Positions 26,457-41,616 of a stretch of 64,000 bases of DNA are shown here, piece after piece. The translations under genes and the position numbers were made by a program. A model generated the notes under the pieces. It saw only the letters and a list, made by a program, of their open reading frames with translations, made no database searches and was not told where the DNA came from. Positions within the stretch are counted from its first letter, which is position 1. Each line of letters starts with the position of its first letter. This stretch comes from an uncultured Thermoleophilia bacterium (GTDB lineage Bacteria; Actinomycetota; Thermoleophilia; UBA2241), in contig CAVOVA010000008.1 of NCBI GenBank assembly GCA_963699725.1, positions 48,349 through 112,348 of the forward strand. The letters run 5' to 3'.

Positions 26457-26460
26457 GCAC

Positions 26461-27150: not shown

Positions 27151-27157
27151 GACCCGC

Positions 27158-27460: not shown

Positions 27461-27462
27461 GC

Positions 27463-27843: not shown

Positions 27844-27930
27844 GCCCAACGCACCGCGCATAACCTGCGCGCCACGCCGTTGGAGTCTATCTCGGCGCTC
27901 CGGCGCTTCAGGTTGATGTGCTTGCTGGAC
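27844..27930 (-). repeat. attC site (family C, right core GCT)
   Basis: GCCCAAC GCACCGCGCATAACCTGCGCGCC ... GGCGCTTCAGGTTGATGTGCTT GCTGGAC; the GNAT 3' end overlaps it by ~23 nt. Confidence 0.7.
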
Positions 27931-28384: not shown

Positions 28385-28470
28385 CTCGATGAGAGGGAGA
28401 TCCTCGAGGTGGCATAGCGCGGCAGCGTCGATGGTGTAGTCAAATGACTCCAGCGCGACTCCCGTGGTCC

Positions 28471-28558
28471 GTCCAACGTGGTGCGCATCAGCAGACGCCG
28501 ATCAACCGCTCTTCCGCAGTCTACCGTTGCAGCGTTCTGCTGGATGCGCTTGTTAGGC
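28471..28558 (-). repeat. attC site (family B)
   Basis: GTCCAAC GTGGTGCGCATCAGCAGACGCCG ... GCAGCGTTCTGCTGGATGCGCTT GTTAGGC. Confidence 0.85.
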
Positions 28559-28559
28559 C

Positions 28560-29021
28560 TCAGATCCAGCGGCGGACCCGCTTCGAGTAGTCGCGGTAGT
28601 CCTGGCCGAGCGAGACCGACAAGACCAGCTCCTCCGGCCGTATCTGGAAACGGGCGATGTAGGCGACGAAGAGCGCGGACACCAGGGCGGCTGCCGGACT
28701 GGCCAACAGCACCGACCAGCCCAAGAGCACGATCTCCATTCCAAGGTAGGTCGGGTTGCGACTGAACCGGTAGACCCCGGAGGTGACTAGAGCCGTGGTG
28801 CGTCCGGGCTCGGTCGGGTGCCACGTCGTACCTGCGCGACTGAGTGCGACGCGGGCCGCGACTATGAGCGCCGTGCCGACAGCAATGAGAATCAACGCGA
28901 CCGGGCCTCGAAGTGTCTCTGGGACGCCGAATCCCGCAGTCACCCGGGAGGCAAGCCACATCAGCCCTGCAGCCGCCACCCAGACCACGTCGGGCGGAAT
29001 CCTCAGCTCAAGACTCGACAT
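28560..29021 (-). CDS. isoprenylcysteine carboxyl methyltransferase (ICMT/PEMT) family membrane protein
   Basis: Trimmed to MSSLELRIPP (AGAGGAG upstream); LVTSGVYRFSRNPTYLGMEIVLLGW signature; four TM segments. Confidence 0.8.
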   Translation of the reverse strand: MSSLELRIPPDVVWVAAAGLMWLASRVTAGFGVPETLRGPVALILIAVGTALIVAARVALSRAGTTWHPTEPGRTTALVTSGVYRFSRNPTYLGMEIVLLGWSVLLASPAAALVSALFVAYIARFQIRPEELVLSVSLGQDYRDYSKRVRRWI

Positions 29022-29036
29022 CGGACTCCTCTGTAG

Positions 29037-29088
29037 GCCCAACGTCTCAGCGCATAACCTGCGCGTCAGGTTGATGCGCCTGTTAGGA
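29037..29088 (-). repeat. short attC site (52 bp, family C arms)
   Basis: GCCCAAC GTCTCAGCGCATAACCTGCGCGTCAGGTTGATGCGCCT GTTAGGA; the TAA stop of the upstream ORF lies in the right core. Confidence 0.75.
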
Positions 29089-29505
29089 CGCTCCCGCATC
29101 CATGTAGACATACGCTCGGATGTGGGCGATCCGCCAGCAGCCGTTGCGCCGCACGAAGACGTCGGTGAAATCGTGCACGATCGGTCGCGGAAGATTCGGG
29201 CCTGCGATTGTGGCCTGACCGTCGAAGAGCGCCACGTCGTCAGTGACGAAACTGACGCGTTTGCACCGCGAGGTGTGGGTCGAGCTAGCACCTTCGCCCG
29301 CCAGGAATTCGCCGAGGAGCCGTCGAGCCTCAGACGCGCCGACCGATGTCCCGCCCCTGGGATCGAGGATGACGACGTCGGGCTCGAGCACCGACATAAG
29401 ACGAGTCAGGTCAGCCGAACCCCAGGCGTTGTCGTAGTCCGCCTCGATCGCGCGGATTTCCGCCTCGTCGCGGCCCCGGTCGGGCTCTGGATCTGGGCGG
29501 CTCAC
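29083..29505 (-). CDS. NTF2-like (SnoaL/DUF4440, SgcJ/EcaC-type) protein
   Basis: AAGGAGG then GTG; EAEIRAIEADYDNAWGSADLTRLMSVLEPDVV......FDGQATI......DVFVRRNGCWRIAHIRAY. Confidence 0.75.
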   Translation of the reverse strand: MSRPDPEPDRGRDEAEIRAIEADYDNAWGSADLTRLMSVLEPDVVILDPRGGTSVGASEARRLLGEFLAGEGASSTHTSRCKRVSFVTDDVALFDGQATIAGPNLPRPIVHDFTDVFVRRNGCWRIAHIRAYVYMDAGAS

Positions 29506-29553
29506 AGTCCGAAACCTCCTTCATCCGCCCTGGCCGACGCTACTGGAGCGTCG

Positions 29554-29640
29554 TCCTAACGCACCGCGGACAAGCTGCGAGCGCCGCGGCCTTGTCTTGC
29601 CGCGACGCTGTGGCGAGCCAGCTTGATCCGCTTGTTGGGT
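29554..29640 (-). repeat. attC site (family A')
   Basis: TCCTAAC GCACCGCGGACAAGCTGCGAGCGCCGCGGCCTTG ... GCCGCGACGCTGTGGCGAGCCAGCTTGATCCGCTT GTTGGGT. Confidence 0.9.
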
Positions 29641-29642
29641 CG

Positions 29643-30281
29643 CTACTCCCGAGTCCCCTCCAGATACACGGCCATCATGGGCATTCCTTCAACGGGCTCC
29701 ACTGTGCATCGGTCCACCACGTATCCGGCCGCCACGGCCCAGTCGCGAATCTCGCGCTCACTGTATCGTAGCGCCACGACGTCGGACTCCTCCCCGTAGT
29801 CAATCGGGCCCGCGCCCTCCCAAGTGGCCGCCAAGAGCTGACCGCCTGGACGAAGAACGCGCCGCCACTCCTGAAAGGCGGACAGGATCTTGTCGGGATC
29901 GAGATGGTGAAGCGCGAAGAAGCTCACCACTGCGGCCGAAGACGCCGACTCGACTTGTCCCAAGTCTCGCATGTCGCCCGCTAGAACGTTGGCACTGCGG
30001 CCCAGCCTGCCTTTGGCGAGTGCCACCATGCGCGGCGACAGGTCCACACCCACCAGCGATCGATCGGGATCATACTGATCCCGATATCTCAACAACATGT
30101 GTCCCGACCCACAGGACGTATCAACGACCGGGCCCCGGATGGCAGCGATCCGCTCAGCCAGACGGCTAAGGGTGTCCGAGTACATGGGGAGGTCTATCTC
30201 GGAGTCCATCATCTGGGCGTATGAGTCCGCCGTGGAGTCATAGAACTCGCGGACCTTCGACTCTGGCGATACTCTCATCAT
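29643..30281 (-). CDS. class I SAM-dependent methyltransferase
   Basis: Trimmed to MMRVSPESKVREFYD; VVDTSCGSGHMLL..VGVDLSPRMV..GDMRDL..FALHHL motifs. The upstream part of track ORF 29643..30836 crosses an attC. Confidence 0.8.
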   Translation of the reverse strand: MMRVSPESKVREFYDSTADSYAQMMDSEIDLPMYSDTLSRLAERIAAIRGPVVDTSCGSGHMLLRYRDQYDPDRSLVGVDLSPRMVALAKGRLGRSANVLAGDMRDLGQVESASSAAVVSFFALHHLDPDKILSAFQEWRRVLRPGGQLLAATWEGAGPIDYGEESDVVALRYSEREIRDWAVAAGYVVDRCTVEPVEGMPMMAVYLEGTRE

Positions 30282-30299
30282 GTTCGTGTTCCCCTGTCG

Positions 30300-30389
30300 A
30301 CTCAACGCACCGCGGATAAGCTGCGAGCGCGCCGGCCTCCCGTGAGACCGCCGGCGCTTCTGCGAGCCAGCTTGATCCGCTTGTTCGGC
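30300..30389 (-). repeat. attC site (family A)
   Basis: ACTCAAC GCACCGCGGATAAGCTGCGAGCGCGCCGGCCTCCCGTGAGACCGCCGGCGCTTCTGCGAGCCAGCTTGATCCGCTT GTTCGGC. Confidence 0.9.
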
Positions 30390-30403
30390 GAGACCCGCAA
30401 CCG

Positions 30404-30811
30404 CTAGCCCTCCCAGACCTCCAGCTCGAGGCCCGGCACGCGTGAGAACTCGCGCACGTTGCCCGTGACCATCGTGAGGCCGTGCGCGACGCAGGTGGCG
30501 GCGAGCCAGAGGTCGTGCGGGCCGATCAGCGTCCCCGCACGGCTGAGCTCGGCCCAGAGCTGTGCGTGGGCGCGCGCGCAGGCGAGGTCCACGGCGAGCA
30601 GCGGGAAGCGCTCGAGGACGCCCTCGACGAACGCCGAGCGGCGGGCGCGCACGTCGGGCCCGGCGGCGCGATGCACGCCGTGGAGGAGCTCGCTCGCGGT
30701 GACGACGCTGAGGAAGGCCTCGTCCTCGCCGTGGCGTGCGACGTGCGGCTCGAGGTGGAGGCGGCCGCGCTCCGCCTCGATGAGGATGCTGGCGTCGATC
30801 AGGACTGCCAT
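30404..30811 (-). CDS. vapC: VapC-type PIN-domain toxin
   Basis: MAVLIDASILIE...........FLSVVTASELLHG......R...F......P.L..D...A...A.L...L...G..IG..DL.LAATCVAHGLTMVTGNVREF. Confidence 0.85.
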   Translation of the reverse strand: MAVLIDASILIEAERGRLHLEPHVARHGEDEAFLSVVTASELLHGVHRAAGPDVRARRSAFVEGVLERFPLLAVDLACARAHAQLWAELSRAGTLIGPHDLWLAATCVAHGLTMVTGNVREFSRVPGLELEVWEG

Positions 30812-31069
30812 GCGTCCCGCGCCTCGCCGAGCTCATCGCGGGAGGCGTCGAGGTCCGCCGCCAGGTCGCCGGCCTCGGCTTCGGTGAGCCGCGGCAGTGA
30901 GGCGAGCAGGCCGGGTAGCTCGGAGAGGCGCGCGCCGGTGGGCAGCGGACGCAGCTCGGCCAGCGGCTTTCTTGCCGCGCAGGAGGGTGAACGACTCGCG
31001 CCGGTAGGCGACGCGGTTGACGTACTCGGCGAAGTTGCGAGCGACTTGGGTGACGGTCACGTCGGACAT
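30799..31069 (-). pseudogene. vapB: VapB/Phd-type antitoxin with +1 frameshift near 30966-30972
   Basis: GAGGAG then ATG 31069: MSDVTVTQVARNFAEYVNRVAYRRESFTLLRGKK. The sensible continuation PLAELRPLPTGARLSELPGLLASLPRLTEAEAGDLAADLDASRDELGEARDAWQS* is one frame over (run AAGAAAG). Length 271 nt (3n+1). Confidence 0.7.
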
Positions 31070-31144
31070 GGACGACTCCTCGGCAGACATCTGATAATCA
31101 GATTACATGATTCCCGGCTCGCTGTCACGCAACGCCTTGGGTCT

Positions 31145-31229
31145 GCCGAACGCACCGCGGATAGGCTGCGAGCGCGCCGGCCTCCCGTGTGGCCGGCGGC
31201 GCGCGGCGAGCTTGATCTGCTTGTTCGAC
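31145..31229 (-). repeat. attC site (family A)
   Basis: GCCGAAC GCACCGCGGATAGGCTGCGAGCGCGCCGGCCTCCCGTGTGGCCGGCGGCGCGCGGCGAGCTTGATCTGCTT GTTCGAC. Confidence 0.9.
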
Positions 31230-31286
31230 ATGGCTGAGGTGCGAGCGTCGCGGGGACGCACCGGCAGTTCGCGCGCAGGGCCTCGC

Positions 31287-31406
31287 TCACGCAGTCGAGG
31301 ATGTCGCAGCGGTACTCCGCCAAGCTGCCGCGCCGAGCGGACGTAGTCGAGCGCCTGCGTTCCAGATGCGCTCGTAGAACTGCTGAACCAGCGTGGGGGT
31401 GCTCAT
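31287..31406 (-). pseudogene. remnant of a SnoaL-like (ester-cyclase type) gene in a 199-bp cassette
   Basis: AAGGAG then ATG: MSTPTLVQQFYERIWNAG matches the conserved N-terminus (..V.rFYe.vWN.Gd) of SnoaL-like proteins, then degenerates. The cassette is too short for the ~130-aa domain. Confidence 0.45.
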
Positions 31407-31427
31407 GGAGAACTTCTCCTTTGCTCT

Positions 31428-31517
31428 GTCGAACGCACCGCGGATAAGCTGCGAGCGCGCCGGCCTCCCGTGAGACCGCCGGCGCTTCTGCGAGTCAGCT
31501 TGATCCGCTTGTTGGGC
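31428..31517 (-). repeat. attC site (family A)
   Basis: GTCGAAC GCACCGCGGATAAGCTGCGAGCGCGCCGGCCTCCCGTGAGACCGCCGGCGCTTCTGCGAGTCAGCTTGATCCGCTT GTTGGGC. Confidence 0.9.
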
Positions 31518-31531
31518 GCCTCGACCACGCC

Positions 31532-32065
31532 TCAGGTCGCCCGTGCGACGTTGCGCGGCTGCCGATGGCGCGCCCGCCGCGACGCGAGCGTGACGACCAG
31601 CGTCAACGTGAGGAGAGACGCGCCGCACGCGGCGTAGAGCCACGAGAGCGCCGCCATGCGCTCGGCCCAGGGCGTGAACACGCCGAGCAGCAGATCCCGG
31701 CCCTCGCCGTGTGCGTAGACGCCGAAGCGGGCCTGCAGGTCGGGGCTCGCCGGATCGAGCGTGAGCGCGGCGAGGAGGCCGGCGACGGTCACAAGCGCGG
31801 GGCAGGTTAGACGCACAGCGACCCGCAGGCGTGGCCGCCAAGAGGCGTAGAGGCTGGCGATGACGAGGGCGCTGAGGGCGGCCGCGACGAGAGCGGCGAA
31901 GACGGCGTCCCCGACGGAGGCCTGCACGGCGACCTGAGCGGAGAGCGTCGGGTCGTCAAGCGGCGATGCGATGTAGACGGCGGCAAGGGCCACGGCCACG
32001 CCGACGGCGAGAAGGGCGAGGATGAGAGAAGCGAGAGTGATGCCGTGTCGCGGTGAGTCAGCCAT
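31532..32065 (-). CDS. hypothetical polytopic membrane protein (cassette ORF)
   Basis: 177 aa, ~5 hydrophobic helices (ITLASLILALLAVGVAVALAAVYI..); no family recognised. Confidence 0.6.
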   Translation of the reverse strand: MADSPRHGITLASLILALLAVGVAVALAAVYIASPLDDPTLSAQVAVQASVGDAVFAALVAAALSALVIASLYASWRPRLRVAVRLTCPALVTVAGLLAALTLDPASPDLQARFGVYAHGEGRDLLLGVFTPWAERMAALSWLYAACGASLLTLTLVVTLASRRARHRQPRNVARAT

Positions 32066-32131
32066 GGGTAGCTCTCTTCGCGTCGACGTGCGTCAGCCTA
32101 GCACGAGCATTTCGCGGACCTTCGGTAGTGC

Positions 32132-32218
32132 GCCCAACGCAACGCGCATGAGCAGACGCGGCTGACCTGCCGGCTTGCGGCAGACCTCCTGGCGTTCTGC
32201 TCGATGCGCTTGTTAGTG
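32132..32218 (-). repeat. attC site (family B)
   Basis: GCCCAAC GCAACGCGCATGAGCAGACGCGGCTGACCTGCCGGCTTGCGGCAGACCTCCTGGCGTTCTGCTCGATGCGCTT GTTAGTG; the toxin TAA stop lies in the right core. Confidence 0.9.
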
Positions 32219-32515
32219 GTCAGCTTCGCTGCGCTCCCGCCAATGCCTCGGGTCGCGCCGCGCGTGCAGGCAGGCGAAGACGCTGACGAGCTCAGGGGTG
32301 GCGACGAAGTAGACCGCGTAGGGGAAACGGCGCAGGAGGGCACGGCGCGCCTTGCCGTGGACTACCGGGTAATGGTCGGGCATGCGCGTGATCTCAGCGA
32401 GGGCAACATCGACCGCGCGCAGGAACTCCGAGCTGAGCCCAGGTGAGCGCTGCTCGTACCAGCGTGCGGCTTCGGCGATGTCCGCCTCGGCCGCCTCGCG
32501 GACGACGAGGCGCAC
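32213..32515 (-). CDS. parE: ParE/RelE-family toxin
   Basis: VVREAAEADIAEAARWYEQRSPGLSSEFLRAVDVALAEI.R.P..YPVVHGKARRALLRRFPYAVYFV......VSVFACLHARRDP..W. Confidence 0.8.
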   Translation of the reverse strand: MRLVVREAAEADIAEAARWYEQRSPGLSSEFLRAVDVALAEITRMPDHYPVVHGKARRALLRRFPYAVYFVATPELVSVFACLHARRDPRHWRERSEADH

Positions 32516-32518
32516 GCC

Positions 32519-32749
32519 TCAGCCGGCCTTGTCCAGGCGCTGCTCGATGCGGGCGCGAACGACCGGCCAGCTCTCACCGGCATCCGGGTCGCGCTCGAGG
32601 TCGGCAAGGCGACGATCGAGTTCGGCGGCCTGCGCCTCGGTGATCGGCAGGTCGCCGGTCTCGGCGGCGACGCTGTCCCAGAGGTCCTCGGCGAGCTGGA
32701 TGCGCTCAGCCAGGGAGAGAGCGGAGATGTCGAGGTCGGTGCTTCGCAT
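32519..32749 (-). CDS. addiction-module antitoxin (TIGR02574-like component)
   Basis: LSLAERIQLAEDLWDSVAAE...LPITEAQAAELDRRLADLERDP..GESW..V.ARIE. Confidence 0.75.
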   Translation of the reverse strand: MRSTDLDISALSLAERIQLAEDLWDSVAAETGDLPITEAQAAELDRRLADLERDPDAGESWPVVRARIEQRLDKAG

Positions 32750-32824
32750 GGCTTCAGTCTCCCCCGCGCACCGGACAGACGCAACACCCGAGTGGTGGAC
32801 ATTGCCCTCACGATCCTGCTGTAC

Positions 32825-32922
32825 CGCTAACGTGTTTGCGCTTCAGCTGTGGTGCGCCCCCACGCACTTCCATGCCGAGGATACCCGACAGGCGCACCAT
32901 CTGCTGGAAGCGCGGGTTAGAC
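32825..32922 (-). repeat. attC site (unique arms)
   Basis: CGCTAAC GTGTTTGCGCTTCAGCTGTGGTGCGCC ... GGCGCACCATCTGCTGGAAGCGCGG GTTAGAC; the right arm carries 2 extra bases relative to the left. Confidence 0.75.
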
Positions 32923-33186
32923 CGCCGTAGTCCCCAATCCGCTCCTGTTCAGGAGATTCTTCAATCGGGAGCTGTGCTGCTTCAGGGCGTCGTAGTCCAA
33001 TACCACCCGGGCGGCCTTCGAGGGCGCGGGCAACATCCCCGCGGCTTTCAGCTGAGCGCTATGAGTATGCAAGACGCAACCCGTGGAAGAGGAAGCGGCT
33101 AAGCGGCCTGCGGCTGGCATCGCCGCTGCAATTCGTTGGGTATACACGGCGATAGACGTCTGCGAGACAAAGAAGGGACCGACACC

Positions 33187-34263
33187 ATGGCAGAAGATGA
33201 CTTTGAGGCACAGGTAGAAGACTACATTCGAAAGTTCCCGTACCAGAACACGCATGCCTACGCCATGCAGTTCACCGGCGGAGACGCCAGAAAGCTGAAC
33301 AAATGGGGCCAGGCAGCGCGGGACCTGCTTAAGGCCGGTGAGGACAAGATCGTCCGGAGCAACAACGACACCCTCTACAAGACGGCGTTCGTCTATCTCG
33401 GGGATGGGCCGGTGGTGCTTCGATCGGATTCGCCTTCGAAGGAGCGATTCAGCTCGTTTCAGCTACAGGATGACCGGAATGCGAACTACCGCAACATCAT
33501 CGGTCCGGACGGTAGCTATACGCTCTACCATGGCGAGAAACCCGAGACCGTCACGGGAGAGGCTGTTGAGGTGCCGTCGCTCCTGTCCGCTGTCGTCACG
33601 CGGATTGAAGTGAAGGATCAGAATGACGCTGCCGACATGGCGGGCGCACAAGCTGTTTTCGACGGCATCACGATTGACGGTCCGACAATCGGCGAGATGC
33701 CCTCAGTCGATCTCCTGAGCGGTTTCGACGAGCGGGTGGAGCAGGAAGCCAACAGGCGCATGGATGAGACGGCGGGGTCCGTGCCGTTTACGAAGATGAT
33801 CGTCGGACCAGGCCAGGAGCCCGGCAAGGACGTCCCCTATCTCTACCACTCTGCCGGCACCAAGGTGGGCTGGGGGGGACCATCAACCTCGCACAGCGCC
33901 TACGATTCGATGTTCACCGACGAGTCCGGTGAGACCCTTGATGGCTGGAAGGGCGAGTACGTGCTGACTACGGAGGCGCCTCCGGTCAACGCCTTCTGGT
34001 CGGTCACTGCCTATGACTCCACTACCGGTCGTTTCCACCCCAACGACGACAACCGCTACCACATCAACAACACGACGGCCGTCAAGAATGAGGACGGCTC
34101 CTTCACGTTCCGTTTCAAGGTGAAGTGCGAAGACGGCGACCAGAATTGCCTCAAGGTTCCCGCCGGGCCGTTCGACGTGGCCGCACGCTACTACCTTCCG
34201 AAGCCGGAGATCATGAGTGGCGAGTGGACGATGTCGAAGCTGGTTCTAAAGAAGCCCGGCTGA
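33187..34263 (+). CDS. DUF1254/DUF1214 two-domain protein, reverse-oriented in its cassette
   Basis: Start trimmed to MAEDDFEAQ. VRSNNDTLYKTAFV (DUF1254-type) and PVNAFWSVTAYD...RF.PN..NRY.IN (DUF1214-type) motifs; clearly more A/T-rich than the flanks. Confidence 0.8.
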   Translation: MAEDDFEAQVEDYIRKFPYQNTHAYAMQFTGGDARKLNKWGQAARDLLKAGEDKIVRSNNDTLYKTAFVYLGDGPVVLRSDSPSKERFSSFQLQDDRNANYRNIIGPDGSYTLYHGEKPETVTGEAVEVPSLLSAVVTRIEVKDQNDAADMAGAQAVFDGITIDGPTIGEMPSVDLLSGFDERVEQEANRRMDETAGSVPFTKMIVGPGQEPGKDVPYLYHSAGTKVGWGGPSTSHSAYDSMFTDESGETLDGWKGEYVLTTEAPPVNAFWSVTAYDSTTGRFHPNDDNRYHINNTTAVKNEDGSFTFRFKVKCEDGDQNCLKVPAGPFDVAARYYLPKPEIMSGEWTMSKLVLKKPG

Positions 34264-34348
34264 TTGCCAGGAAACCGCCACCCCGATCGTGCGTCTCCGT
34301 CGGCGTCGGCTTCACCGAGGCTGCCAGTTCTCCCCTCCGGCTGCGTGC

Positions 34349-34438
34349 GTCTAACGCACCGCGGATAAGCTGCGAGCGCGCCGGCCTCCCGCGAGGCCGC
34401 CTGCGCTGCGGCGAGTCAGCTTGATCCGCTTGTTAGGC
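34349..34438 (-). repeat. attC site (family A)
   Basis: GTCTAAC GCACCGCGGATAAGCTGCGAGCGCGCCGGCCTCCCGCGAGGCCGCCTGCGCTGCGGCGAGTCAGCTTGATCCGCTT GTTAGGC; the ankyrin TAA stop lies in the right core. Confidence 0.9.
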
Positions 34439-34855
34439 GGATGGCCGACGACCGTCCCCTGCCGCCACGAGCAGCTGATAGACCGCCGGGCCATCCCCAC
34501 GCTTGCGGTCCCTCGCCTTGTCCAATGCGCTGAGCTGCATCCAGCCGCGAATCGTGGGGTCGGCTCCGGCGTCGACCAGAAGCTTCGCCATCTGCAGTGA
34601 GCAGGTGGCTGCCACCTCGCCGAGTGGCGTGTTGCCGATCACGCTCTCGTCATGCGCGTTGACGTCGGCACCAGACTGGATCAGATACGCCGCAACATCG
34701 ATGTGATCGTTCTCGACCGCGTAGTGTAGAGGGGTCTTGCCCAGATCATCGATGGCGTCGACGGGATGTCCGAGGGCGACGAGCTGGCGTACCGCCTTGA
34801 GATCGCCCGACTGGGCGAGGAAATGGAGTTGTGCGCCCTCGAACTGCGAGTCCAT
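34433..34855 (-). CDS. ankyrin-repeat protein
   Basis: Trimmed to MDSQFEG. Three ANK units: G.TPLHYAVENDHIDVAAYLIQSGADVNA, GNTPLGEVAATCSLQMAKLLVDAGADP. Confidence 0.8.
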   Translation of the reverse strand: MDSQFEGAQLHFLAQSGDLKAVRQLVALGHPVDAIDDLGKTPLHYAVENDHIDVAAYLIQSGADVNAHDESVIGNTPLGEVAATCSLQMAKLLVDAGADPTIRGWMQLSALDKARDRKRGDGPAVYQLLVAAGDGRRPSA

Positions 34856-34863
34856 TGTGTTCC

Positions 34864-34953
34864 GCCTAACGTTGTTGCGCATGAGCTGCGCGGGTTCCGG
34901 ATACCGCGAAGCGGGGCGCGCTTTGGCGCGTCAGCTCGATGCGCTTGTTCGCC
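34864..34953 (-). repeat. attC site (family D)
   Basis: GCCTAAC GTTGTTGCGCATGAGCTGCGCGGG ... GCGCTTTGGCGCGTCAGCTCGATGCGCTT GTTCGCC. Confidence 0.85.
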
Positions 34954-35108
34954 CGACGGTTGGTCACGAATCGACTGGCGGGCCGTCAGGATCGCTCGCT
35001 CCAACTCTGGCACCTCGTGGGAATACATGAGGTACGCGCCCCCGAGGTCGCGTACCAGCACCGGCTTGCGGGAGCGGCGGACAACGAAGCGAGAGAGGAG
35101 GGGTAGCG

Positions 35109-35588
35109 ATGCTCGGAGTGGGTGACGAATCTCCGGCGATGGTCGTCAGGTCGCACGATGGCCGGGAAGTCGATCTTGGCGCTCCAGGGCGGCGCACAGC
35201 ACTGTGGTTCTCCCCGAAAGGCGGGCGCTTTGACGAGTACTTCGACAGGCTCATACCGAGCTTGAGTGGGTGAACGATCGTAGCCGCTGAGTTCAGCGGC
35301 CTGCACGACAGGTTCGAGGCTCTCGACGTTCAGATCGTCGGATCGACGGTCGACAAGCCGGAGATACACACAAAGTGGGCGGCCAGGCGCGGGGTGGACT
35401 TCCCGATAATCGACGACTCTGACTGGGCTGTCTCGAAGGCCTTCGGCGTGGCGCGACCGCTCGGTGGCCTGAAATCCGTCACCTTTCTCATCGACCCCGA
35501 CGGCACGTTGCGTGGGGTATATCCCAAGCGAAAGGACAAGGGGCACGCGGCGATAGTGCTTGAAGGCTGTCGGGGCATCTGGGGCTAG
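35109..35588 (+). CDS. BCP/PrxQ-type peroxiredoxin with in-frame TGA (35271-35273) at the peroxidatic-Cys position: candidate selenoprotein or pseudogene
   Basis: GAGGAGGGG then ATG 35109. ...SLSG[TGA]TIVAAEFSGLHDRFEALDVQIVGSTVDKPEIHTKWAARRGVDFPIIDDSDWAVSKAFGV aligns gap-free with E. coli BCP GCTVQACGLRDNMDELKKAGVDVLGISTDKPEKLSRFAEKELLNFTLLSDED..FGV (from memory). Same frame both sides of the TGA. Confidence 0.5.
35283..35300 (+). other. SECIS-like hairpin 9 nt downstream of the in-frame TGA
   Basis: GCCGCUG-AGUU-CAGCGGC: 7-bp G/C-rich stem with a 4-nt loop containing GU; loop G/U sit ~21-22 nt from the U of UGA. Confidence 0.35.
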
Positions 35589-35616
35589 AGCCCATCGCTG
35601 CGATGCGCCCCGTTCG

Positions 35617-35706
35617 GGCGAACGCACCGCGGATAAGCTGCGAGCGCGACGGCCTCCTGTGAGGCCGCCGGCGCTGCGGCGAGTCAGCTTCATCCGCTTG
35701 TTCGAA
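35617..35706 (-). repeat. attC site (family A)
   Basis: GGCGAAC GCACCGCGGATAAGCTGCGAGCGCGACGGCCTCCTGTGAGGCCGCCGGCGCTGCGGCGAGTCAGCTTCATCCGCTT GTTCGAA. Confidence 0.9.
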
Positions 35707-35755
35707 GCACCGCCACTACCCTTGCAGCCCCTGCACCGCACCTCGTACAAGTGGT

Positions 35756-35914
35756 TCAATCGACCTGGTTCCGCTCGCGCTCCAATCGCTCGAGTCGGTC
35801 GTCGATCACGTTGAGGCCGCGAATCACTTCGTTCATGCCTCTGCGCACGGAGTAGAAGACGCCGCCAATCCATACGAGAGCGATGCAGATTAGGACAACG
35901 ATGATGATCTCCAC
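35756..35914 (-). CDS. 52-aa single-pass membrane protein (below ORF-track cutoff), sole ORF of a 234-bp cassette
   Basis: GTG 35914: VEIIIVVLICIALVWIGGVFYSVRRGMNEVIRGLNVIDDRLERLERERNQVD. An N-terminal TM helix is followed by a charged helix. Confidence 0.5.
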   Translation of the reverse strand: MEIIIVVLICIALVWIGGVFYSVRRGMNEVIRGLNVIDDRLERLERERNQVD

Positions 35915-35940
35915 GACTGACGCCCCCTCAGGTCGGTTGC

Positions 35941-36030
35941 TTCGAACGCACCGTGGATAAGCTGCGAGCGCTCACGCCACGAAGTGTACCGTAGAGCTGC
36001 CGGCGAGCCAGCTTGATCCGCTTGTTAGAG
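35941..36030 (-). repeat. attC site (family A-like)
   Basis: TTCGAAC GCACCGTGGATAAGCTGCGAGCGCTCACGCC ... GCTGCCGGCGAGCCAGCTTGATCCGCTT GTTAGAG. Confidence 0.9.
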
Positions 36031-36040
36031 CTGCCGACGC

Positions 36041-36454
36041 TCATCGCGCCTGCGTCGCGCTTGGTCGGGGCCGCGTCAGCAACTGCAGGAGGGAGAGCGC
36101 AACGAGGCACAGCGGGGCAACCATGAGCTCGCCGAACCCCCAGGTGACGAGGTAGTAGAGGCCGATCGCGCTGAGGACGAGGCCGCAGGCCAGGAGGATG
36201 CTCCAGGTCACGCTGCCGCCGCGCCTCGTGAGCGCGAGCACGACCGCAGCCGCGTAGGCGACCGCCGGCGCTAGGCTGATGGCGAGGTTGATGATGTAGT
36301 ACCGCAACGACTGGTCTGCGACGCCGAGCTCCCACACCGCCATGCGGACGAGGACGACCACCGCGGCCGCGAGGACGACCACCAGCAGCCAGCGCAAAGC
36401 GACCAACGCCCCTGACGCGCCGGCTCCGACCCTGTCTCCTTGTGCCTGCATCAC
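36041..36454 (-). CDS. hypothetical polytopic membrane protein (cassette ORF)
   Basis: 137 aa, four hydrophobic helices (LVALRWLLVVVLAAAVVVLV.., YYIINLAISLAPAVAYAAAVVLAL..). Confidence 0.6.
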   Translation of the reverse strand: MMQAQGDRVGAGASGALVALRWLLVVVLAAAVVVLVRMAVWELGVADQSLRYYIINLAISLAPAVAYAAAVVLALTRRGGSVTWSILLACGLVLSAIGLYYLVTWGFGELMVAPLCLVALSLLQLLTRPRPSATQAR

Positions 36455-36471
36455 GCCCCCAGCGCTGCTAG

Positions 36472-36558
36472 CTCTAACGCACCGCGCATGAGCAGACGCG
36501 GCTGACCTGCCGGTTCACGGCAGACCTTCTGGCGTTCTGCTCGATGCGCTTGTTGGAC
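36472..36558 (-). repeat. attC site (family B)
   Basis: CTCTAAC GCACCGCGCATGAGCAGACGCGGCTGACCTGCCGGTTCACGGCAGACCTTCTGGCGTTCTGCTCGATGCGCTT GTTGGAC. Confidence 0.9.
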
Positions 36559-36569
36559 CGCACCGTGAT

Positions 36570-37763
36570 TCATGTCGAGTGTAGTGGCGCTCGCTTCGAT
36601 GCGAGCCTGTCGAGCAGCGCGACACCGTACTCGGGCCCCGGCAGAGCGGCGATCTCATCCCGAAGGCGCACCGCGGGCCCTCGGAAGCCGTCGTCGGCAA
36701 GCACGCGCGACACTGCTGCGCGTACCATCTCCGGCGTTGCGCTCAGAGCGTCGAGCACCTCCGCGACTCCCAGCGCCCGGCATCGCGCCGCATTGAGCGG
36801 CTGGTCTGCCCCGATTGGGATCAACACCATCGGTAGCCCGTGCGCCAAGGCTCCCAGGACGCTGCCCGAGCCGGCGTGCGACACAACCAGGTCACAGTGA
36901 GGCAGGAGCGCCGACTGAGGCACGAACCGCTCGATGTGAACGTTGGCCGCCTGCCGACCCAACTCATCCGGGTCGAGGTTTCGTCCCACCGTGACGATGA
37001 GGTTGATCGGCAGGTCGCGGAGTCCCGCCAGCACGCGCTGGAATAGGTCGCCGGACTCCAGGTTGTAGACCGTGCCGAGCGTGAGGTACACGGTCGGCGC
37101 GCGGTGTCGGCGGGCCAGCCACGGGAGATCGGCTTCGTTGCTTGTCGCGTCGAAGCTGACCAGGCGCACGTGATGTGCCGTGGGCGGCGAAGGAAGGTCG
37201 GGGTCGCGGAGGCTCGGCGGAAAGGGCGTGAGAAGGAGATAGCGGCTGAGCATGGCGAGGCTGGGATCGCGGGGCAGACCGTGTTCAGCGCGGACTTCAT
37301 CCAGCGGGCCGGCGACGAACTCGTTGCGCACGAAGGCGCCGGTGGCGCTGACGAGCACCGTCGCGTACGGCAGTCCGAGCCGCTCGGCGACGAGCATCGC
37401 GCCGAAGTCAAATTCCTCACACACGAGGAGGTCGGGTCGCCACTCGGCGCACAGCGAGAGGATGTCGGCTGTCCGCTCGCGCGCGATCCGATGACCGAAG
37501 CCGCTACCCACATCACGCATGTCCTGGTCCAGATTCACCTCGGCCAGCGGCAACCGTTCTGGCGTGAGGCCGGCATCTGATCCGGCGGGGAATGCCAGGA
37601 ATCCGGCGGCCTCGACCTGGGGGGTCATCCAGGGGCGGCCTGCGAAGGCGACTGAGTGACGCTCCGTCTCTGCCGCGCGGGCCAGGGGGATGAGCGGCTC
37701 CAAGTGCCCGCTGCCACCCGCGAAGGTGAAGAGCATGCGCTTGGGGATTGGTCTTCCGTGCAT
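36570..37763 (-). CDS. GT1-family UDP-glycosyltransferase (macrolide/MGT-like)
   Basis: FAGGSGHLEPLIPLARA N-terminus and C-terminal donor motif VPQSALLPHCDLVVSHAGSGSVLGALAHGLPMVLIPIGADQPLNA. Confidence 0.8.
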   Translation of the reverse strand: MHGRPIPKRMLFTFAGGSGHLEPLIPLARAAETERHSVAFAGRPWMTPQVEAAGFLAFPAGSDAGLTPERLPLAEVNLDQDMRDVGSGFGHRIARERTADILSLCAEWRPDLLVCEEFDFGAMLVAERLGLPYATVLVSATGAFVRNEFVAGPLDEVRAEHGLPRDPSLAMLSRYLLLTPFPPSLRDPDLPSPPTAHHVRLVSFDATSNEADLPWLARRHRAPTVYLTLGTVYNLESGDLFQRVLAGLRDLPINLIVTVGRNLDPDELGRQAANVHIERFVPQSALLPHCDLVVSHAGSGSVLGALAHGLPMVLIPIGADQPLNAARCRALGVAEVLDALSATPEMVRAAVSRVLADDGFRGPAVRLRDEIAALPGPEYGVALLDRLASKRAPLHST

Positions 37764-37786
37764 CCGAACACCGCGCCTTCGTGGCG

Positions 37787-37876
37787 GTCTAACGCCCGGC
37801 GCATAAGCTGCGAGCGCCTACGCTACGGCCTTCCACGTAGAGCTTACTGCGAGCCAGCTTGATGCGCTTGTTAGGC
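37787..37876 (-). repeat. attC site (family A-like)
   Basis: GTCTAAC GCCCGGCGCATAAGCTGCGAGCGCCTACGC ... AGCTTACTGCGAGCCAGCTTGATGCGCTT GTTAGGC. Confidence 0.9.
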
Positions 37877-37890
37877 GCGAACAACTCCGG

Positions 37891-38460
37891 TCACCCTTCG
37901 TCGAGAGAGGCTGGGGCGGGCGACGCGGCGGCGGGCGGCTGCGGAGCTGGCGCAGCGGCCTCGTCTCGCCAGAGGCGGCGGCTGAGCCGCTCCGAGAAGA
38001 AGACGAGGAGCAGGCCCACGCCCAGCTCGACGAGCGGGTAGACGCCGCCGTGGAGCCAGTTGATCCAGTGCCACGAGACCTGCGTCGTCATGCCGAAGCC
38101 GTCGCCGCTCGACGACTCGACGACGCCGTAGGTCGCCGCCTGGCACAGCCCGGGGACGGCGAGCGCGACGAGGACGACCCCGGCGACCAGCAGCGCGAGG
38201 CGCAGGACGATGCGCGCCTGCGGCGGCGAGCCCGGCGGTGAGTCGTCGAACCAGCGGGCGGCGAGGCGGCCGCCCCACAGGACGAGCGCGAGGCCGACGA
38301 GTAGCTGAACGAGCACCGTCGCCCAGGCCAGCAGTGTGACCACCAGCGGGGAGTCGGGGCCTTCGAGGGACCACAACATGGCCGTCTGGATGAGGCCGAG
38401 GGCGCCGACCATGACGAACAGGCCGACACACTTGAGCGCGACTGCGGCAAGGCCTCTCAC
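37891..38460 (-). CDS. hypothetical polytopic membrane protein with Ala/Pro-rich tail (cassette ORF)
   Basis: 189 aa, GTG start, 4-5 TM helices; no family recognised. Confidence 0.55.
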   Translation of the reverse strand: MRGLAAVALKCVGLFVMVGALGLIQTAMLWSLEGPDSPLVVTLLAWATVLVQLLVGLALVLWGGRLAARWFDDSPPGSPPQARIVLRLALLVAGVVLVALAVPGLCQAATYGVVESSSGDGFGMTTQVSWHWINWLHGGVYPLVELGVGLLLVFFSERLSRRLWRDEAAAPAPQPPAAASPAPASLDEG

Positions 38461-38474
38461 TGCGCCCCCTCTGC

Positions 38475-38564
38475 GCCTAACGCACCGCGCGTAACCTGCG
38501 CGGGCTGCGGTCCCAAGTTACTACAGGAACCGTCGGCCGCGTCAGGTTGACGCGCTTGTTGGGC
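38475..38564 (-). repeat. attC site (family C)
   Basis: GCCTAAC GCACCGCGCGTAACCTGCGCGGGCTGCGGTCCCAAGTTACTACAGGAACCGTCGGCCGCGTCAGGTTGACGCGCTT GTTGGGC. Confidence 0.9.
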
Positions 38565-38577
38565 ATGGGTTTCACCC

Positions 38578-39642
38578 TCACTGGACCACGGCAATGTCTC
38601 CGGCGTAGGGCATCGCTGCCGAGTCGAGTTGTGCCTGACGCTGCCAGGTCCGCCCGCCGTCGTTAGTGCCGTAGACGACGCAGCCGCTCGACTCGTCGTT
38701 CACCCGCCAGCCGGTGCTCGCGTCGGCGAAGGCGAGGCGGGACCCGCCCTGGCCGCGGATGCGCAGCCAGTGGGCGCCGCCGTCCACGCTGCGGTAGAGG
38801 TCGCCGCCGGCGAGAGCCCAGACGTGATGGTCATCAGTAGCGCAGAGGTCGTCGATGCCGACGCCGGTCGTCTCCAGCTGGCGCTTCCACGTGCGACCGC
38901 CGTCGCTGCTCACGAGCACGGCGCCGGCGACTTCGTCGGGCTGGGGCTGGGCGGTGATGCTGCCCGCCACCCAGACGCGGTCAGTGGCCGCGGCGACCTG
39001 GCCGAACGACAAGGCGCTGCGTGCGGGGACCTCGCGGACCTGCACGGTCCAGTGCAGGCCGCCGTCGCTCGTGCCGAGGACCTGCCAGCCGGCGGCAGCC
39101 CAACCGCGTGAGGCATCGGCGAAGTCGATGGCGTGGACCCGGGCCGGGGACGACCCGGGGGCGAGGAACGCCTGGGTCCTCTCCCAGTCGCCACCGCCGT
39201 CCACGGTCCGCAGTGCGGCGCCGGCGCCGACCGTCCAGGCTTCATCCGGAGCCAGGCAGGCAACCGAGGTCAGGGATCGCTCCGAGCCCTCGAGGCCTGA
39301 GGTCTGCTCCTGCCAGTTTGCACCGCCGTCCGACGTGCAGAGGATGGTGCCGTCGGTGCCGACCGCGAAGCCCGAGCGGTCGGACGCGAAGTCTGCGGCC
39401 AAGAGGGTCGCCTGCGTACCGGAGGTACTCTGTTGCCAGTGCTCGCCGTCGATGGTGAGGAAGACGGCTCCCGCGTCACCCACCACGCACGCGAGCGGGG
39501 TCAGCGCCGCCTGCGAGGAGGTCGGATTCGGGGCGGGAGGAGGCGCCTCGCCGCCGCAGGCCGAGAGCCCGACAGCAGCGGCAGCGGTGAACAGCAGCGC
39601 GAATGACGCGAGCCAACGAGCAGTGACGAGACGAGCCCCCAT
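38578..39642 (-). CDS. BNR/Asp-box repeat beta-propeller lipoprotein (Ycf48/sialidase-like fold)
   Basis: Trimmed to MGARLVTARWL..LSAC lipobox. Six Asp-boxes: TSDGGANW, TVDGGGDW, TSDGGLHW, SSDGGRTW, SVDGGAHW, TNDGGRTW. Confidence 0.8.
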   Translation of the reverse strand: MGARLVTARWLASFALLFTAAAAVGLSACGGEAPPPAPNPTSSQAALTPLACVVGDAGAVFLTIDGEHWQQSTSGTQATLLAADFASDRSGFAVGTDGTILCTSDGGANWQEQTSGLEGSERSLTSVACLAPDEAWTVGAGAALRTVDGGGDWERTQAFLAPGSSPARVHAIDFADASRGWAAAGWQVLGTSDGGLHWTVQVREVPARSALSFGQVAAATDRVWVAGSITAQPQPDEVAGAVLVSSDGGRTWKRQLETTGVGIDDLCATDDHHVWALAGGDLYRSVDGGAHWLRIRGQGGSRLAFADASTGWRVNDESSGCVVYGTNDGGRTWQRQAQLDSAAMPYAGDIAVVQ

Positions 39643-39654
39643 GACGCCCCCTAT

Positions 39655-39741
39655 GCCCAACGCACCGCGGATAAGCTGCGAGCGCCGCGGCTCTTCTTAG
39701 CCGCGACGCTTTGGCGAGCCAGCTTGATTCGCTTGTTGGGC
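39655..39741 (-). repeat. attC site (family A')
   Basis: GCCCAAC GCACCGCGGATAAGCTGCGAGCGCCGCGGCTCTT ... GCCGCGACGCTTTGGCGAGCCAGCTTGATTCGCTT GTTGGGC. Confidence 0.9.
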
Positions 39742-39763
39742 CGCAACCCCAGCATCGCTTCTC

Positions 39764-40165
39764 CTACGGAACCGGCGTCGGGGTGCCAGTGCTGTCCGAG
39801 AGCTTGGTCAAAGTCGTGGTGATGGGACTGCTCAGGCCCTCGCCGGATACGACGAAGTCGATGTGCTCGCCCGAGTCGTCGATGGCGAGGTCCATCTGCC
39901 CCTCCACGCTGCTGGTGACCAGCCCGGTGCCGCGCAGGTGACTCCCCTGGCGGTCGAGCATGGCGATCGACATGTAGTTCGACCCGCCGGGCGACCCCTG
40001 GAACAGCGTGTGCTTGCCGTCCTGCTCCGCGATGACGATGCGAACGTGGTCTCCCGATTCCATGCGCCATGTTCCGACGAAGGGGTCGGTCTGCGCGGGG
40101 GAGCCGCCACACGCTGCGAGCACCACCACCGCTCCGACGACCAACGCCATGACCACCGTCTTCAC
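39764..40165 (-). CDS. hypothetical lipoprotein (cassette ORF)
   Basis: GTG 40165: VKTVVMALVVGAVVVLAAC lipobox; lipocalin-sized soluble domain; the track start (TTG 40186) lies inside the attC core. Confidence 0.6.
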   Translation of the reverse strand: MKTVVMALVVGAVVVLAACGGSPAQTDPFVGTWRMESGDHVRIVIAEQDGKHTLFQGSPGGSNYMSIAMLDRQGSHLRGTGLVTSSVEGQMDLAIDDSGEHIDFVVSGEGLSSPITTTLTKLSDSTGTPTPVP

Positions 40166-40180
40166 GTTCGCCCCCTGTCG

Positions 40181-40270
40181 GCCCAACGCACCGCGCGTAA
40201 CCTGCGCGGGCTGCGGTCTGAGGTTACTACAGGAACCGTTGGGCGCGTCAGGTTGACGCGCTTGTTAGCC
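40181..40270 (-). repeat. attC site (family C)
   Basis: GCCCAAC GCACCGCGCGTAACCTGCGCGGGCTGCGGTCTGAGGTTACTACAGGAACCGTTGGGCGCGTCAGGTTGACGCGCTT GTTAGCC; the TAA stop of the upstream ORF lies in the right core. Confidence 0.9.
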
Positions 40271-40666
40271 AGTGGCGCCGACATTCTCCTCTGCGCAGTA
40301 GGCTCGAACGGCAGGCACGAAGAGCAGAACGGCTGCGACGAAGATGCTGGTCACGCCCACCGTGATGAAGTAGGCCCCGAACCGGAGTTCCCCGGACAAG
40401 AGGTCGATCAGGCCGAAGATCAGAGCCGGCGAGCCGAGCACGGAGAGGAGGCCGAGCAGCGAGCGAGCCCAGTTGGCGCCACGGTAGAGGAAGACGCAGA
40501 GTGCCAGGCTGACCAGGAGGCCGATCAGGGAGCCGGCAAGACCTCCCATGGGGGAGCCGGCGTGGAAGATGCGAGAGATGGGCCACTCCGCCAACACAAC
40601 GACGATCACCGCGATGACCCACACGCGACCTGCGTCCTTCCGTGGCATCCTCTGCACCCTCTGCAT
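40265..40666 (-). CDS. hypothetical polytopic membrane protein (cassette ORF)
   Basis: Trimmed to MQRVQRMPRK (or ATG 40648); four TM helices (VWVIAVIVVVLAEW.., LAGSLIGLLVSLALCVFLY..). Confidence 0.6.
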   Translation of the reverse strand: MQRVQRMPRKDAGRVWVIAVIVVVLAEWPISRIFHAGSPMGGLAGSLIGLLVSLALCVFLYRGANWARSLLGLLSVLGSPALIFGLIDLLSGELRFGAYFITVGVTSIFVAAVLLFVPAVRAYCAEENVGATG

Positions 40667-40668
40667 CT

Positions 40669-40758
40669 GGCTAACGCACCGCGGATAAGCTGCGAGCGCG
40701 CCGGCCTCCCGTGAGGCCGCCGGCGCTGCGGCGAGACAGCTTGATCCGCATGTTAGGA
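40669..40758 (-). repeat. attC site (family A)
   Basis: GGCTAAC GCACCGCGGATAAGCTGCGAGCGCGCCGGCCTCCCGTGAGGCCGCCGGCGCTGCGGCGAGACAGCTTGATCCGCAT GTTAGGA; the methyltransferase TAA stop lies in the right core. Confidence 0.9.
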
Positions 40759-41517
40759 GGCTCTCCGGCCCACGTAGGCGAACCCGGTGAGGGCGTAGAA
40801 GTAGCGACCCTCGGAGTCGAGCTCGCGCTGCTCGGCGAGGAAGCGCTCGCACTCTTCGGCGGTGACCAGGCCATCCCCGACCAGTTCATGGAAGTCGTGG
40901 GCGCGCTCGTGGCCGTAGGCGCCGGGCGCGAAGCGGGTCTCGATGAGCGTGCGGGAGACGACCTCGCCGTGGAAAACGCCGCCGGCGCTGCACAGGCCCC
41001 AGAGCCGCCTCCCGAGCCAGGGGTCAACACAGGCCATCCACGCCTGGCGGCGGTCGGCGAAGCCCTGTACGAGGCGGCGCACGAGGGTACGATCGCTGCC
41101 GTCGAAGAGCTGCGTATCCCAGTCCCAGTGGGCGAGGACGACGGTGCCGCCGGAGCGCACGACCCGGGCCAGCTCGGCGAGGAGCGCGGCCGGCTCGCGC
41201 AGACACTCGAGCAGGTTGTGCGAGTAGGCGCATTCGAAGGCGCCGTCGGCGAACGGCAAGCCTTGGTCGAGGTCGGCGAGGACGAACTTCGCGCGCCGGT
41301 CGGCGCCGGCCGCAGCCCTGGCGGCCGCGAGCGCGTCCGGCGAGCAGTCAACGCCGACGAAACGCGAGCCGGGATCGGGACGGCGGGCCGCGAGCTCGAT
41401 GAGGTCGGGACCCGCGCCGCAGCCGAGGTCGAGGAACGTCAGCGGCTCGGCCTGCGGTACGAACGACAGCAGCCACTCGCGATGCGCGCCTACCGACTCC
41501 GGTACGGCTGTCACCAA
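40753..41517 (-). CDS. class I SAM-dependent methyltransferase
   Basis: TTG 41517 / GTG 41514 after AGGAGG, which is formed at the attC R' junction. FLDLGCGAGPDLIELA..FVGVDCSP..ADLD..PFADGAFECAYSHNLL. Confidence 0.8.
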   Translation of the reverse strand: MVTAVPESVGAHREWLLSFVPQAEPLTFLDLGCGAGPDLIELAARRPDPGSRFVGVDCSPDALAAARAAAGADRRAKFVLADLDQGLPFADGAFECAYSHNLLECLREPAALLAELARVVRSGGTVVLAHWDWDTQLFDGSDRTLVRRLVQGFADRRQAWMACVDPWLGRRLWGLCSAGGVFHGEVVSRTLIETRFAPGAYGHERAHDFHELVGDGLVTAEECERFLAEQRELDSEGRYFYALTGFAYVGRRAS

Positions 41518-41526
41518 CCCCTGTCC

Positions 41527-41616
41527 TCCTAACGCACCGCGGATAAGCTGCGAGCGTGCCGGCCTCCCGTGAGGCCGCCGGCGCCGCGGCGAGTCAGCTT
41601 GATCCGCTTGTTGGGC
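41527..41616 (-). repeat. attC site (family A), first in the array
   Basis: TCCTAAC GCACCGCGGATAAGCTGCGAGCGTGCCGGCCTCCCGTGAGGCCGCCGGCGCCGCGGCGAGTCAGCTTGATCCGCTT GTTGGGC. Confidence 0.9.

Follow-up and report, generated by a model that had tools for sequence, protein, structure and literature searches.

A probable selenoprotein gene of the PrxQ family, with a divergent active site, on an integron cassette of an uncultured Thermoleophilia bacterium

The DNA analysed here is a stretch of 64,000 nucleotides (hereafter the window, 64 kb in all) from contig CAVOVA010000008.1 of an uncultured Thermoleophilia bacterium, and its GC content is 69%. The gene under study encodes a protein of the peroxiredoxin (Prx) superfamily, in which an in-frame TGA stands in place of the codon of the catalytic cysteine. 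It is probably an intact selenoprotein gene, whose UGA-55 would be recoded to selenocysteine (Sec), and would represent a divergent variant of the Sec-PrxQ family carried on an integron cassette. An earlier note on this DNA, made from the letters alone, had proposed a candidate selenoprotein; that reading is now supported by the conservation of the TGA in relatives, by a covarying hairpin downstream of it, and by purifying selection. Sec-containing Prx enzymes are already known, as the same note had pointed out: they form an established bacterial selenoprotein family defined by the T/SxxU motif, which counted 12 members in 2006 and 91 in 2016 (PMC1794560, PMC5029168). The new features here are the conserved insertion, the loss of both the Thr and the catalytic Arg, and the inverted carriage of the gene on an integron cassette.

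The coordinates of the features are collected in Table 1. The open reading frame (ORF) contains a single in-frame stop, the TGA, and the rest is open; this, as well as the strong ribosome-binding site, had been read correctly in the earlier note. The GC contents at the three codon positions of the gene are 0.64, 0.48 and 0.76. TGA is also the commonest ordinary stop codon of the window genes (26 of 40), which indicates that the genetic code is standard and that any recoding must be local. The Pfam profile AhpC-TSA (PF00578) gave 58 bits (cutoff 26; E=1e-15) in an unbroken alignment of residues 54-135 with its positions 40-122, which places the protein in the Prx superfamily and bears out the gapless match that had been claimed from the active site onward. 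The Redoxin profile scored 30.4 against a cutoff of 26.6 over residues 4-137. The best matches among solved structures were the Xanthomonas PrxQ/BCP proteins (5iph and others, E=3e-11). In both the Pfam alignment and that with the Xanthomonas campestris PrxQ (XcPrxQ), the TGA falls on the peroxidatic column at the start of helix α2, opposite the profile Cys and Cys48 of XcPrxQ, respectively; the earlier statement that it replaces the catalytic Cys is thereby confirmed. The window protein did not reach the equivalog cutoffs of the BCP/PrxQ subfamily (PRK09437, 53.5 against 140 bits; NF053650, 35.7 against 260 bits), and the canonical Sec form of its relatives, described below, also stays under the BCP/PrxQ equivalog cutoff (89 bits).

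Table 1. Positions of the Prx gene, its signals and the surrounding integron features in the window
Feature	Position	Strand	Remarks
Prx ORF	35109-35588	+	159 codons; ATG 35109; codon 55 = UGA; stop TAG 35586-35588
Shine-Dalgarno-like GAGGAGGGG	35095-35103	+	Read from the sequence; GGAGG core ends 7 nt before the ATG
In-frame TGA at the peroxidatic-Cys column, predicted Sec codon	35271-35273	+	
SECIS-like hairpin GCCGCTG-AGTT-CAGCGGC	35283-35300	+	Stem 35283-35289/35294-35300; loop AGUU 35290-35293
Cys154 codon	35568-35570	+	Sole Cys of the window protein; invariant in the insertion clade
12-codon insertion GRFDEYFDRLIP	35223-35258	+	Between the β-strand ALWFSPK and the active-site loop; exact placement alignment-dependent
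Region upstream of the gene, 157 nt	34952-35108	+	Moves with the cassette; conserved in L058 and L004; presumed promoter site
Prx cassette unit, ~749 bp	34874-35622	-	From G|TTCGCCCG at 35623 leftwards; gene antisense; own attC
attC of the Prx cassette	34868-34951	-	
attC of the neighbouring cassette	35615-35702	-	Its AAC box is the right-hand boundary of the Prx cassette
Cassette array, at least 24 attC sites	24651-41612	-	Most coding ORFs on the minus strand
Integron integrase IntI	42285-43250	-	TIGR02249, 467 bits against a cutoff of 265; Phage_integrase and SAM_4 domains

The homologue scan covered one genome per GTDB species (546 relatives), from which the best 80 were examined, and metagenome contigs were added. 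As the earlier note had proposed to check, the peroxidatic column was compared among the homologues, and TGA instead of Cys was found in 62 sequences, including 56 of a canonical type (FYPKANTGG*TTEAVEF) and six of the window and its insertion-bearing relatives (the insertion clade). The canonical sequences, 54 of them unique around the TGA, came from metagenome contigs and from metagenome-assembled genomes (MAGs) of Thermoleophilia and Actinomycetota; among the best 80 of the 546 relatives, this form occurs in about 50 MAGs with the label Thermoleophilia, Actinomycetota or Actinomycetes. The TGA-form genes were otherwise intact, except for four frameshifted canonical copies and one truncated copy. 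The frameshifted copies (L052, L059, L061 and L062, at about 5001-5447), three of which belong to MAGs of the MFD series, could be either real pseudogenes or products of indel errors in the assemblies.

The protein search revealed one full-length Cys form (P0001, FYPKAATGGCTTEA) and 14 fragments of 87-97 residues covering the post-TGA part only; moreover, the N-terminal fragment P0003 ends where the N-terminal ORF of the window ends. On the contig DNA of these fragments, an upstream 42-codon ORF stops with TGA exactly at the Cys column, which explains why the database proteins are split in two. Public gene calls on the canonical Sec-PrxQ loci (L001, L003 and L005-L054; for example, L001:2827-3273) likewise come in two pieces, an ORF of 42 residues and a 'thioredoxin-dependent peroxiredoxin' fragment of 87-97 residues. 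The split calls are a systematic mis-annotation of a predicted selenoprotein, by which an abundant Thermoleophilia Sec-PrxQ family has been divided into two short ORFs. In the alignment, the in-frame UGA stands opposite the Cys of the Cys forms (P0001 and loci of the L060-L099 series), with coding sequence on both flanks. P0001, encoded at L102 (L102:3001-3459), is a Cys orthologue in the neighbourhood typical of the Sec form (MetW-like methyltransferase, Lactamase_B, cupin, Prx and HD), and its hairpin is lost; this pair is a clean exchange between Cys and the predicted Sec within one syntenic locus.

The predicted Sec codon is followed after 9 nt by a hairpin resembling a Sec insertion sequence (SECIS) element. 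It has 7 bp, and the G and U of its loop are 21 and 22 nt away from the U of the UGA, just as had been described from the letters. The element is comparable with the SECIS of the fdhF type, a stem-loop within the coding sequence, soon after the UGA, with an apical-loop G-U about 21-22 nt from it; whereas the window hairpin has a short 7-bp stem and a 4-nt AGUU loop, with no evident bulged U. In the canonical family, codons +4 to +8 (GCC GTT GAG TTC AAC) showed no synonymous variation among the 54 unique sequences. These invariant codons include the rare GTT; whereas there is free variation in the flanking codons for Ala, Val, Leu, Gly and Thr. Pairing of the stem across the clades is 99.1%, and it falls to 16-59% when the register is slid. 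Compensatory changes were found at two positions: pair 5 changes from U:A to C:G in the window, L058 and L004, and the same exchange is seen at pair 6 in L055 and L057, where L056 and L004 have U.G intermediates. The covariation score was not attained by any of 500 column shuffles.

The stem is also specific to the TGA forms. All seven pairs are kept in 60 of the 62 TGA sequences and six pairs in the other two; whereas the 38 TGC/TGT forms have only 1-5 of the seven pairs at the same place (2/7 in P0001/L102). A conserved and covarying stem-loop specific to UGA, as expected of a bacterial SECIS, is therefore present, and the comparison among homologues that had been suggested for the hairpin came out in its favour: synonymous sites are conserved, changes are compensatory, and the Cys forms lack the structure. 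The hairpins of the window and the canonical genes share the same position, the same loop and 16 of 18 nucleotides, which indicates that the insertion clade and the canonical family share one Sec-containing ancestor.

With its relatives, the window gene forms a small, divergent sister clade of the predicted Sec-PrxQ family that is widespread in Thermoleophilia. Seven copies were found (the window, L058, L004, L055, L085, L056 and L057), including a truncated one (L004) and two nearly identical ones (L055/L085); L085 was the one new locus from a metagenome scan for further insertion-clade genes. The closest relative, L058, is from the Actinomycetota MAG BM5_bin.17 (89% protein identity to the window protein), and L055, L056 and L057 are from Thermoleophilia MAGs (about 62%). 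The six relatives span 61-89% protein identity and 12-30% nucleotide divergence, so they are not assembly duplicates of one sequence. The full-length copies (window, L058, L055/L085, L056 and L057) have exactly 159 codons, the same TGA and the same 12-codon insertion. The insertion follows the pattern PKGG-hh-D-[ED]-h-x-D-R-h-h-P-[SA]-[LW]-S-[GP]-U, where h is a hydrophobic residue, and the invariant residues of the clade include K37, G38, G39, D42, D46, R47, P50, S53 and C154. The partial copy L004 (L004:653-937, 84% nucleotide identity) has retained the insertion and the TGA, as well as the hairpin, in which one pair is U.G, and its homology ends after about codon 75; it is either a truncated copy or a chimeric contig of 937 bp.

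The ratios of non-synonymous to synonymous substitution rates (dN/dS; Nei-Gojobori method, NG86) were 0.25-0.39 for the whole gene, and were below 1 separately in the N-terminal part, the insertion and the C-terminal part. The window and L058 differ with a dN/dS of 0.32 (Fisher P=6e-4), and the window and L004 differ within the insertion by three synonymous and no non-synonymous changes. Since the ratio is about 0.3 on both sides of the TGA, the gene is not a pseudogene. The earlier note had also allowed that the N-terminal region might prove frameshifted and the gene decayed; instead, the insertion is conserved in length in the clade and is under purifying selection.

The active site of the clade differs from that of other Prx enzymes. 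The segment preceding the TGA is 12 residues longer than in the relatives; it had been recognised before as about 10 residues longer than in canonical BCPs. The motif PxxxT/SxxC(U) is not found in the window protein, whose active site reads PKGGRFDEYFDRLIPSLSG-U: Leu52 aligns at position -3, so the noted absence of the conserved Thr there is real, Ser is at -2, the nearest Pro is at -5, and the strand-end Pro is at -19. The canonical relatives do contain PxxxT/SxxU, with T at -3 in 52 of 54 sequences and S in the other two. Beyond what had been noticed earlier, the catalytic Arg (the R of xRxTFxI/L) is lost as well: Ser123 occupies its position in the window protein. The region reads LKSVTFLID in the window, AKRTTWLID in the canonical clade and IERSTFLL in XcPrxQ. 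Ser is also found at this position in L058, and His in L055-57; both the Thr at -3 and the catalytic Arg are absent from all full-length copies of the clade.

Comparison with known families shows both similarities and differences. The window gene shares with the Sec-Prx family (PMC1794560, PMC5029168) the AhpC/TSA fold, the UGA at the peroxidatic position, and the SECIS hairpin downstream within the coding sequence. The canonical Thermoleophilia relatives fit its T/SxxU definition (TGGU, and SGGU in 2 of 54 unique sequences); whereas the insertion clade has L or W at -3 and Ser at -2 (SLSGU/AWSPU), the 12-residue insertion before the loop and no catalytic Arg, and the window gene is located on an integron cassette. 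The BCP/PrxQ proteins, such as E. coli Bcp and XcPrxQ (PDB 5iph, 3gkk and 5iiz), have the same monomer-size thioredoxin fold; their GCT, TFLID and GHA motifs align with the window protein, and PRK09437 was its best NCBIfam match. The window protein differs from them by the predicted Sec for Cys, by Leu for Thr and Ser for Arg, by the 12-residue insertion, and by a 7-residue deletion common to the canonical Thermoleophilia clade. Moreover, the resolving Cys of BCP/PrxQ, at +5 or in helix α3, is absent, and Cys154 is the only Cys. PrxU of Eubacterium acidaminophilum (NF040737 peroxi_PrxU), a thioredoxin-dependent peroxiredoxin that we take to carry Sec, was one of the weaker matches; it represents a different Prx subfamily, to which the window protein does not belong (25 bits; the cutoff is 270).

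The classical set of Pro, Thr and Arg is incomplete, so we do not file the window protein under the canonical peroxiredoxins; it has the Prx fold and probably a related redox function. In the proposed mechanism, UGA-55 would be recoded by SelB and Sec-tRNA(Sec), recruited by the hairpin 9 nt downstream, and the product would have 159 residues, the PrxQ/BCP (AhpC/TSA) fold and, at the peroxidatic position, Sec; the dependence on SelB is our assumption. The selenolate might then react with peroxide or another oxidised substrate, and the selenenic acid could be resolved by the invariant Cys154 or by an external thiol. Such redox chemistry of Sec55, with Cys154 or an external thiol as the resolving partner, is suggested by the residues conserved in the clade. 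The invariant Arg47 and Ser53, which lie in or beside the insertion, may stand in for the lost Arg and Thr.

The Prx gene is located in an integron. The attC-like sites are 80-90 nt long, have AAC...GTT cores and fold as imperfect hairpins. The inner flanks at the two ends of the cassette are complementary, as GTTCGCCCG (34947-34955) pairs with CGGGCGAAC (35615-35623), and the same complementarity was checked by eye at nine neighbouring boundaries. The unit is bounded by attC sites and the array adjoins IntI, as in integron gene cassettes; however, the usual orientation, with the ORF running along the array and the attC after its stop, was not found here, as the Prx gene is inverted. The block common to the window and L058 (34868-35623, 88% identity) comprises the upstream attC and the gene, reaches exactly to the AAC of the next attC, and is flanked by unrelated DNA on both sides. 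These features are similar to those of sedentary chromosomal integrons, which also have an attC-flanked array (here at least 24 sites) beside IntI and cassettes shared with other genomes elsewhere; whereas the ORF in the window is antisense to the array and the host phylum is Actinomycetota, an assignment that the closest relatives and the GC content of 69% also suggest.

Five lines of evidence agree that the array runs on the minus strand. Nearly all ORFs with a coding-type GC content at the third codon position are on this strand; the ankyrin-repeat ORF of a neighbouring cassette (34433-34855, minus strand) ends with a TAA inside the CCTAAC core; the attC hairpins have their unpaired base on the minus-strand 5' arm; IntI follows the array on its right-hand side, co-oriented with the cassettes and not divergent from them; and the block shared with L058 has the boundaries given above. 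A plus-oriented cassette with its attC downstream of the gene was also considered, and was rejected on the L058 block, the ORF strands, IntI and the unpaired base. This corrects the earlier note, since the Prx cassette runs on the minus strand with its gene antisense to the array, and the gene must consequently be expressed from signals inside its own cassette. As the SECIS is inside the coding region, the cassette would carry its own recoding signal and would work only in a Sec-competent host.

Outside the window, the cassette of L058 (L058:1-2800) ends at a GAAC core and abuts unrelated DNA, followed by gltX and genes for tRNA-Gln and tRNA-Glu; it may be a first cassette beside attI or a lone cassette that occupies a secondary site, or the contig may be mis-assembled. 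No attC motifs of the window type were found around L055-57, and at L085 a single attC-like 3' motif lies upstream of the gene, at a distance of about 2.9 kb. The insertion-clade genes have no conserved neighbours, their context differing from locus to locus. The shifting neighbours of L055-57, together with the lack of arrays of the window attC type there, are consistent with an accessory gene.

Several observations weigh against recoding of UGA-55 in an intact and functional gene. The loss of Thr(-3) and the catalytic Arg and the displacement of Pro argue against classical Prx catalysis, and make the peroxidase activity uncertain. No sigma-70 promoter consensus was recognised in the cassette, and a terminator scan of the cassette was also empty. 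The check with a covariance model that the earlier note had suggested failed to support it: no SECIS family of Rfam matched, either in the whole window at the gathering threshold or in 35200-35400 at E<=10, and these searches gave only chance miRNA/sRNA matches. However, Rfam covers bacterial SECIS elements only to a limited extent, and the negative accordingly carries little weight. The folding z-score of the hairpin in the single sequence (-0.84) is unexceptional for its GC-rich context, which upholds the earlier caveat that G/C hairpins are common at this GC content; since the folding of one sequence cannot decide, the significance of the hairpin comes from the comparison of homologues only. 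The truncation of L004 after about codon 75 shows that individual copies can decay. Finally, selA, selB, selD and tRNA-Sec were not found in the 64-kb window.

The genes for Sec decoding were also searched in the related loci. No tRNA-Sec was found in the window or in 52 related loci, and in tblastn searches with SelA, SelB and SelD of E. coli, the window together with related loci of about 0.8 Mb gave only a weak SelA-like match. This SelA-like gene (L001:5459-6273 on the minus strand, and L005:9751-10083) has a 'weak' Pfam SelA match and 28% identity to E. coli SelA over 124 residues (E=2e-4). It lies downstream of the canonical Sec-PrxQ, by about 2 kb in L001 and L002 and about 4.3 kb in L005, and may be a SelA-like enzyme dependent on pyridoxal phosphate instead of a selenocysteine synthase. 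The MAG SMAG_U14282 carries both the canonical Sec form (L049) and the insertion form (L055), an indirect indication of Sec competence. The host of the window is presumably Sec-competent.

The strongest competing explanation is that the gene is a selenoprotein by descent but silent cargo in the genome of the window, where the host would lack Sec decoding or the cassette would be untranscribed, so that a 54-residue peptide or nothing would be made. The failure to find Sec machinery in the window, the antisense position with no recognised promoter, and the truncated related copy L004 are all compatible with it, as is the general view of integron arrays as stores of often unexpressed cassettes. 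However, nothing can be concluded from not finding sel genes in as little as 64 kb, and relatives of the presumed host class widely retain Sec-PrxQ. Moreover, the ORF is fully intact, the window hairpin is perfectly paired, and the dN/dS between the window and L058 indicates selection along the lineages separating the two cassette copies. Silent cargo is therefore considered unlikely, though it has more in its favour than the two explanations that follow.

The second is a decayed Prx pseudogene, in which the TGA would be a nonsense mutation that struck the Cys codon, the insertion of 36 nt and the missing Thr and Arg would be further signs of decay, and the hairpin would have arisen by chance. 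The disrupted PxxxTxxC motif, the missing catalytic Arg and the unexceptional z-score would fit, and other nonsense pseudogenes were reported from the array in the earlier note. Against these stand six relatives with the same TGA, insertion and length, a dN/dS close to 0.3 both in the insertion and to either side of the TGA, and a hairpin that covaries and is strictly tied to TGA, not to TGC/TGT. The pseudogene was rejected on the clade conservation and dN/dS, and is regarded as very improbable. Equally improbable is read-through by an amino acid other than Sec (near-cognate Trp or Cys), or the production of two polypeptides with an internally initiated C-terminal domain, even though gene callers split all members of the family (into ORFs of 42-54 and 87-97 residues) and Sec insertion is a prediction from sequence: the UGA occupies the column of the catalytic Cys within one fold, neither half of which would be a viable domain, no conserved start codon or Shine-Dalgarno sequence precedes the C-terminal part and the database fragments start variably, the hairpin at SECIS distance is conserved at synonymous sites and specific to TGA forms, and Sec-Prx is an established family.

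If the gene is a functional Sec-PrxQ variant, as preferred here, it would be a natural experiment, in which a Prx fold has kept Sec but not the Thr and Arg that Prx catalysis is held to require. It would bear on why Sec is used over Cys, and on whether Sec relaxes the requirements of an active site. It would also suggest that a recoding-dependent gene can travel as a cassette, useful only to Sec-competent recipients. A more far-reaching interpretation is put forward tentatively, and is rather doubtful at present: the protein might be a Prx-fold selenoenzyme with a rewired active site (a new architecture, possibly with a non-peroxide substrate), and the gene might be spreading between Thermoleophilia genomes as a self-contained cassette with its own SECIS. 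The Thr and Arg would then be dispensable for a selenolate, or would be replaced by Arg47 and Ser53. Mobility of a selenoprotein gene by way of an integron would then be seen for the first time, and in a phylum from which complete integrons are thought to be absent; a literature search turned up no account of such a gene on an integron cassette. IntegronFinder 2.0 detected no complete integron among the complete genomes of Actinobacteria (PMC9024848), and the apparent complete chromosomal integron in a probable actinobacterium contrasts with such surveys.

The window contains neither a second SECIS-like motif, nor a second Prx gene, nor a copy of the canonical PrxQ, as far as could be found. 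A region at 57990-58300 is about 69% identical to a gene located 4-5 kb downstream of the canonical Sec-PrxQ in L023, L041 and L059. A neighbouring cassette also has an inverted gene, which encodes a DUF1254/DUF1214 protein (33136-34263, plus strand). Moreover, a second small cluster of attC-like sequences was observed at 10090-13764 (10090-10168, 11287-11304, 13288-13366 and 13743-13764), which could be either a separate attC cluster that has no integrase or a part of the array that has been displaced; it adjoins an ORF for a DDE transposase (13563-14315, plus strand).

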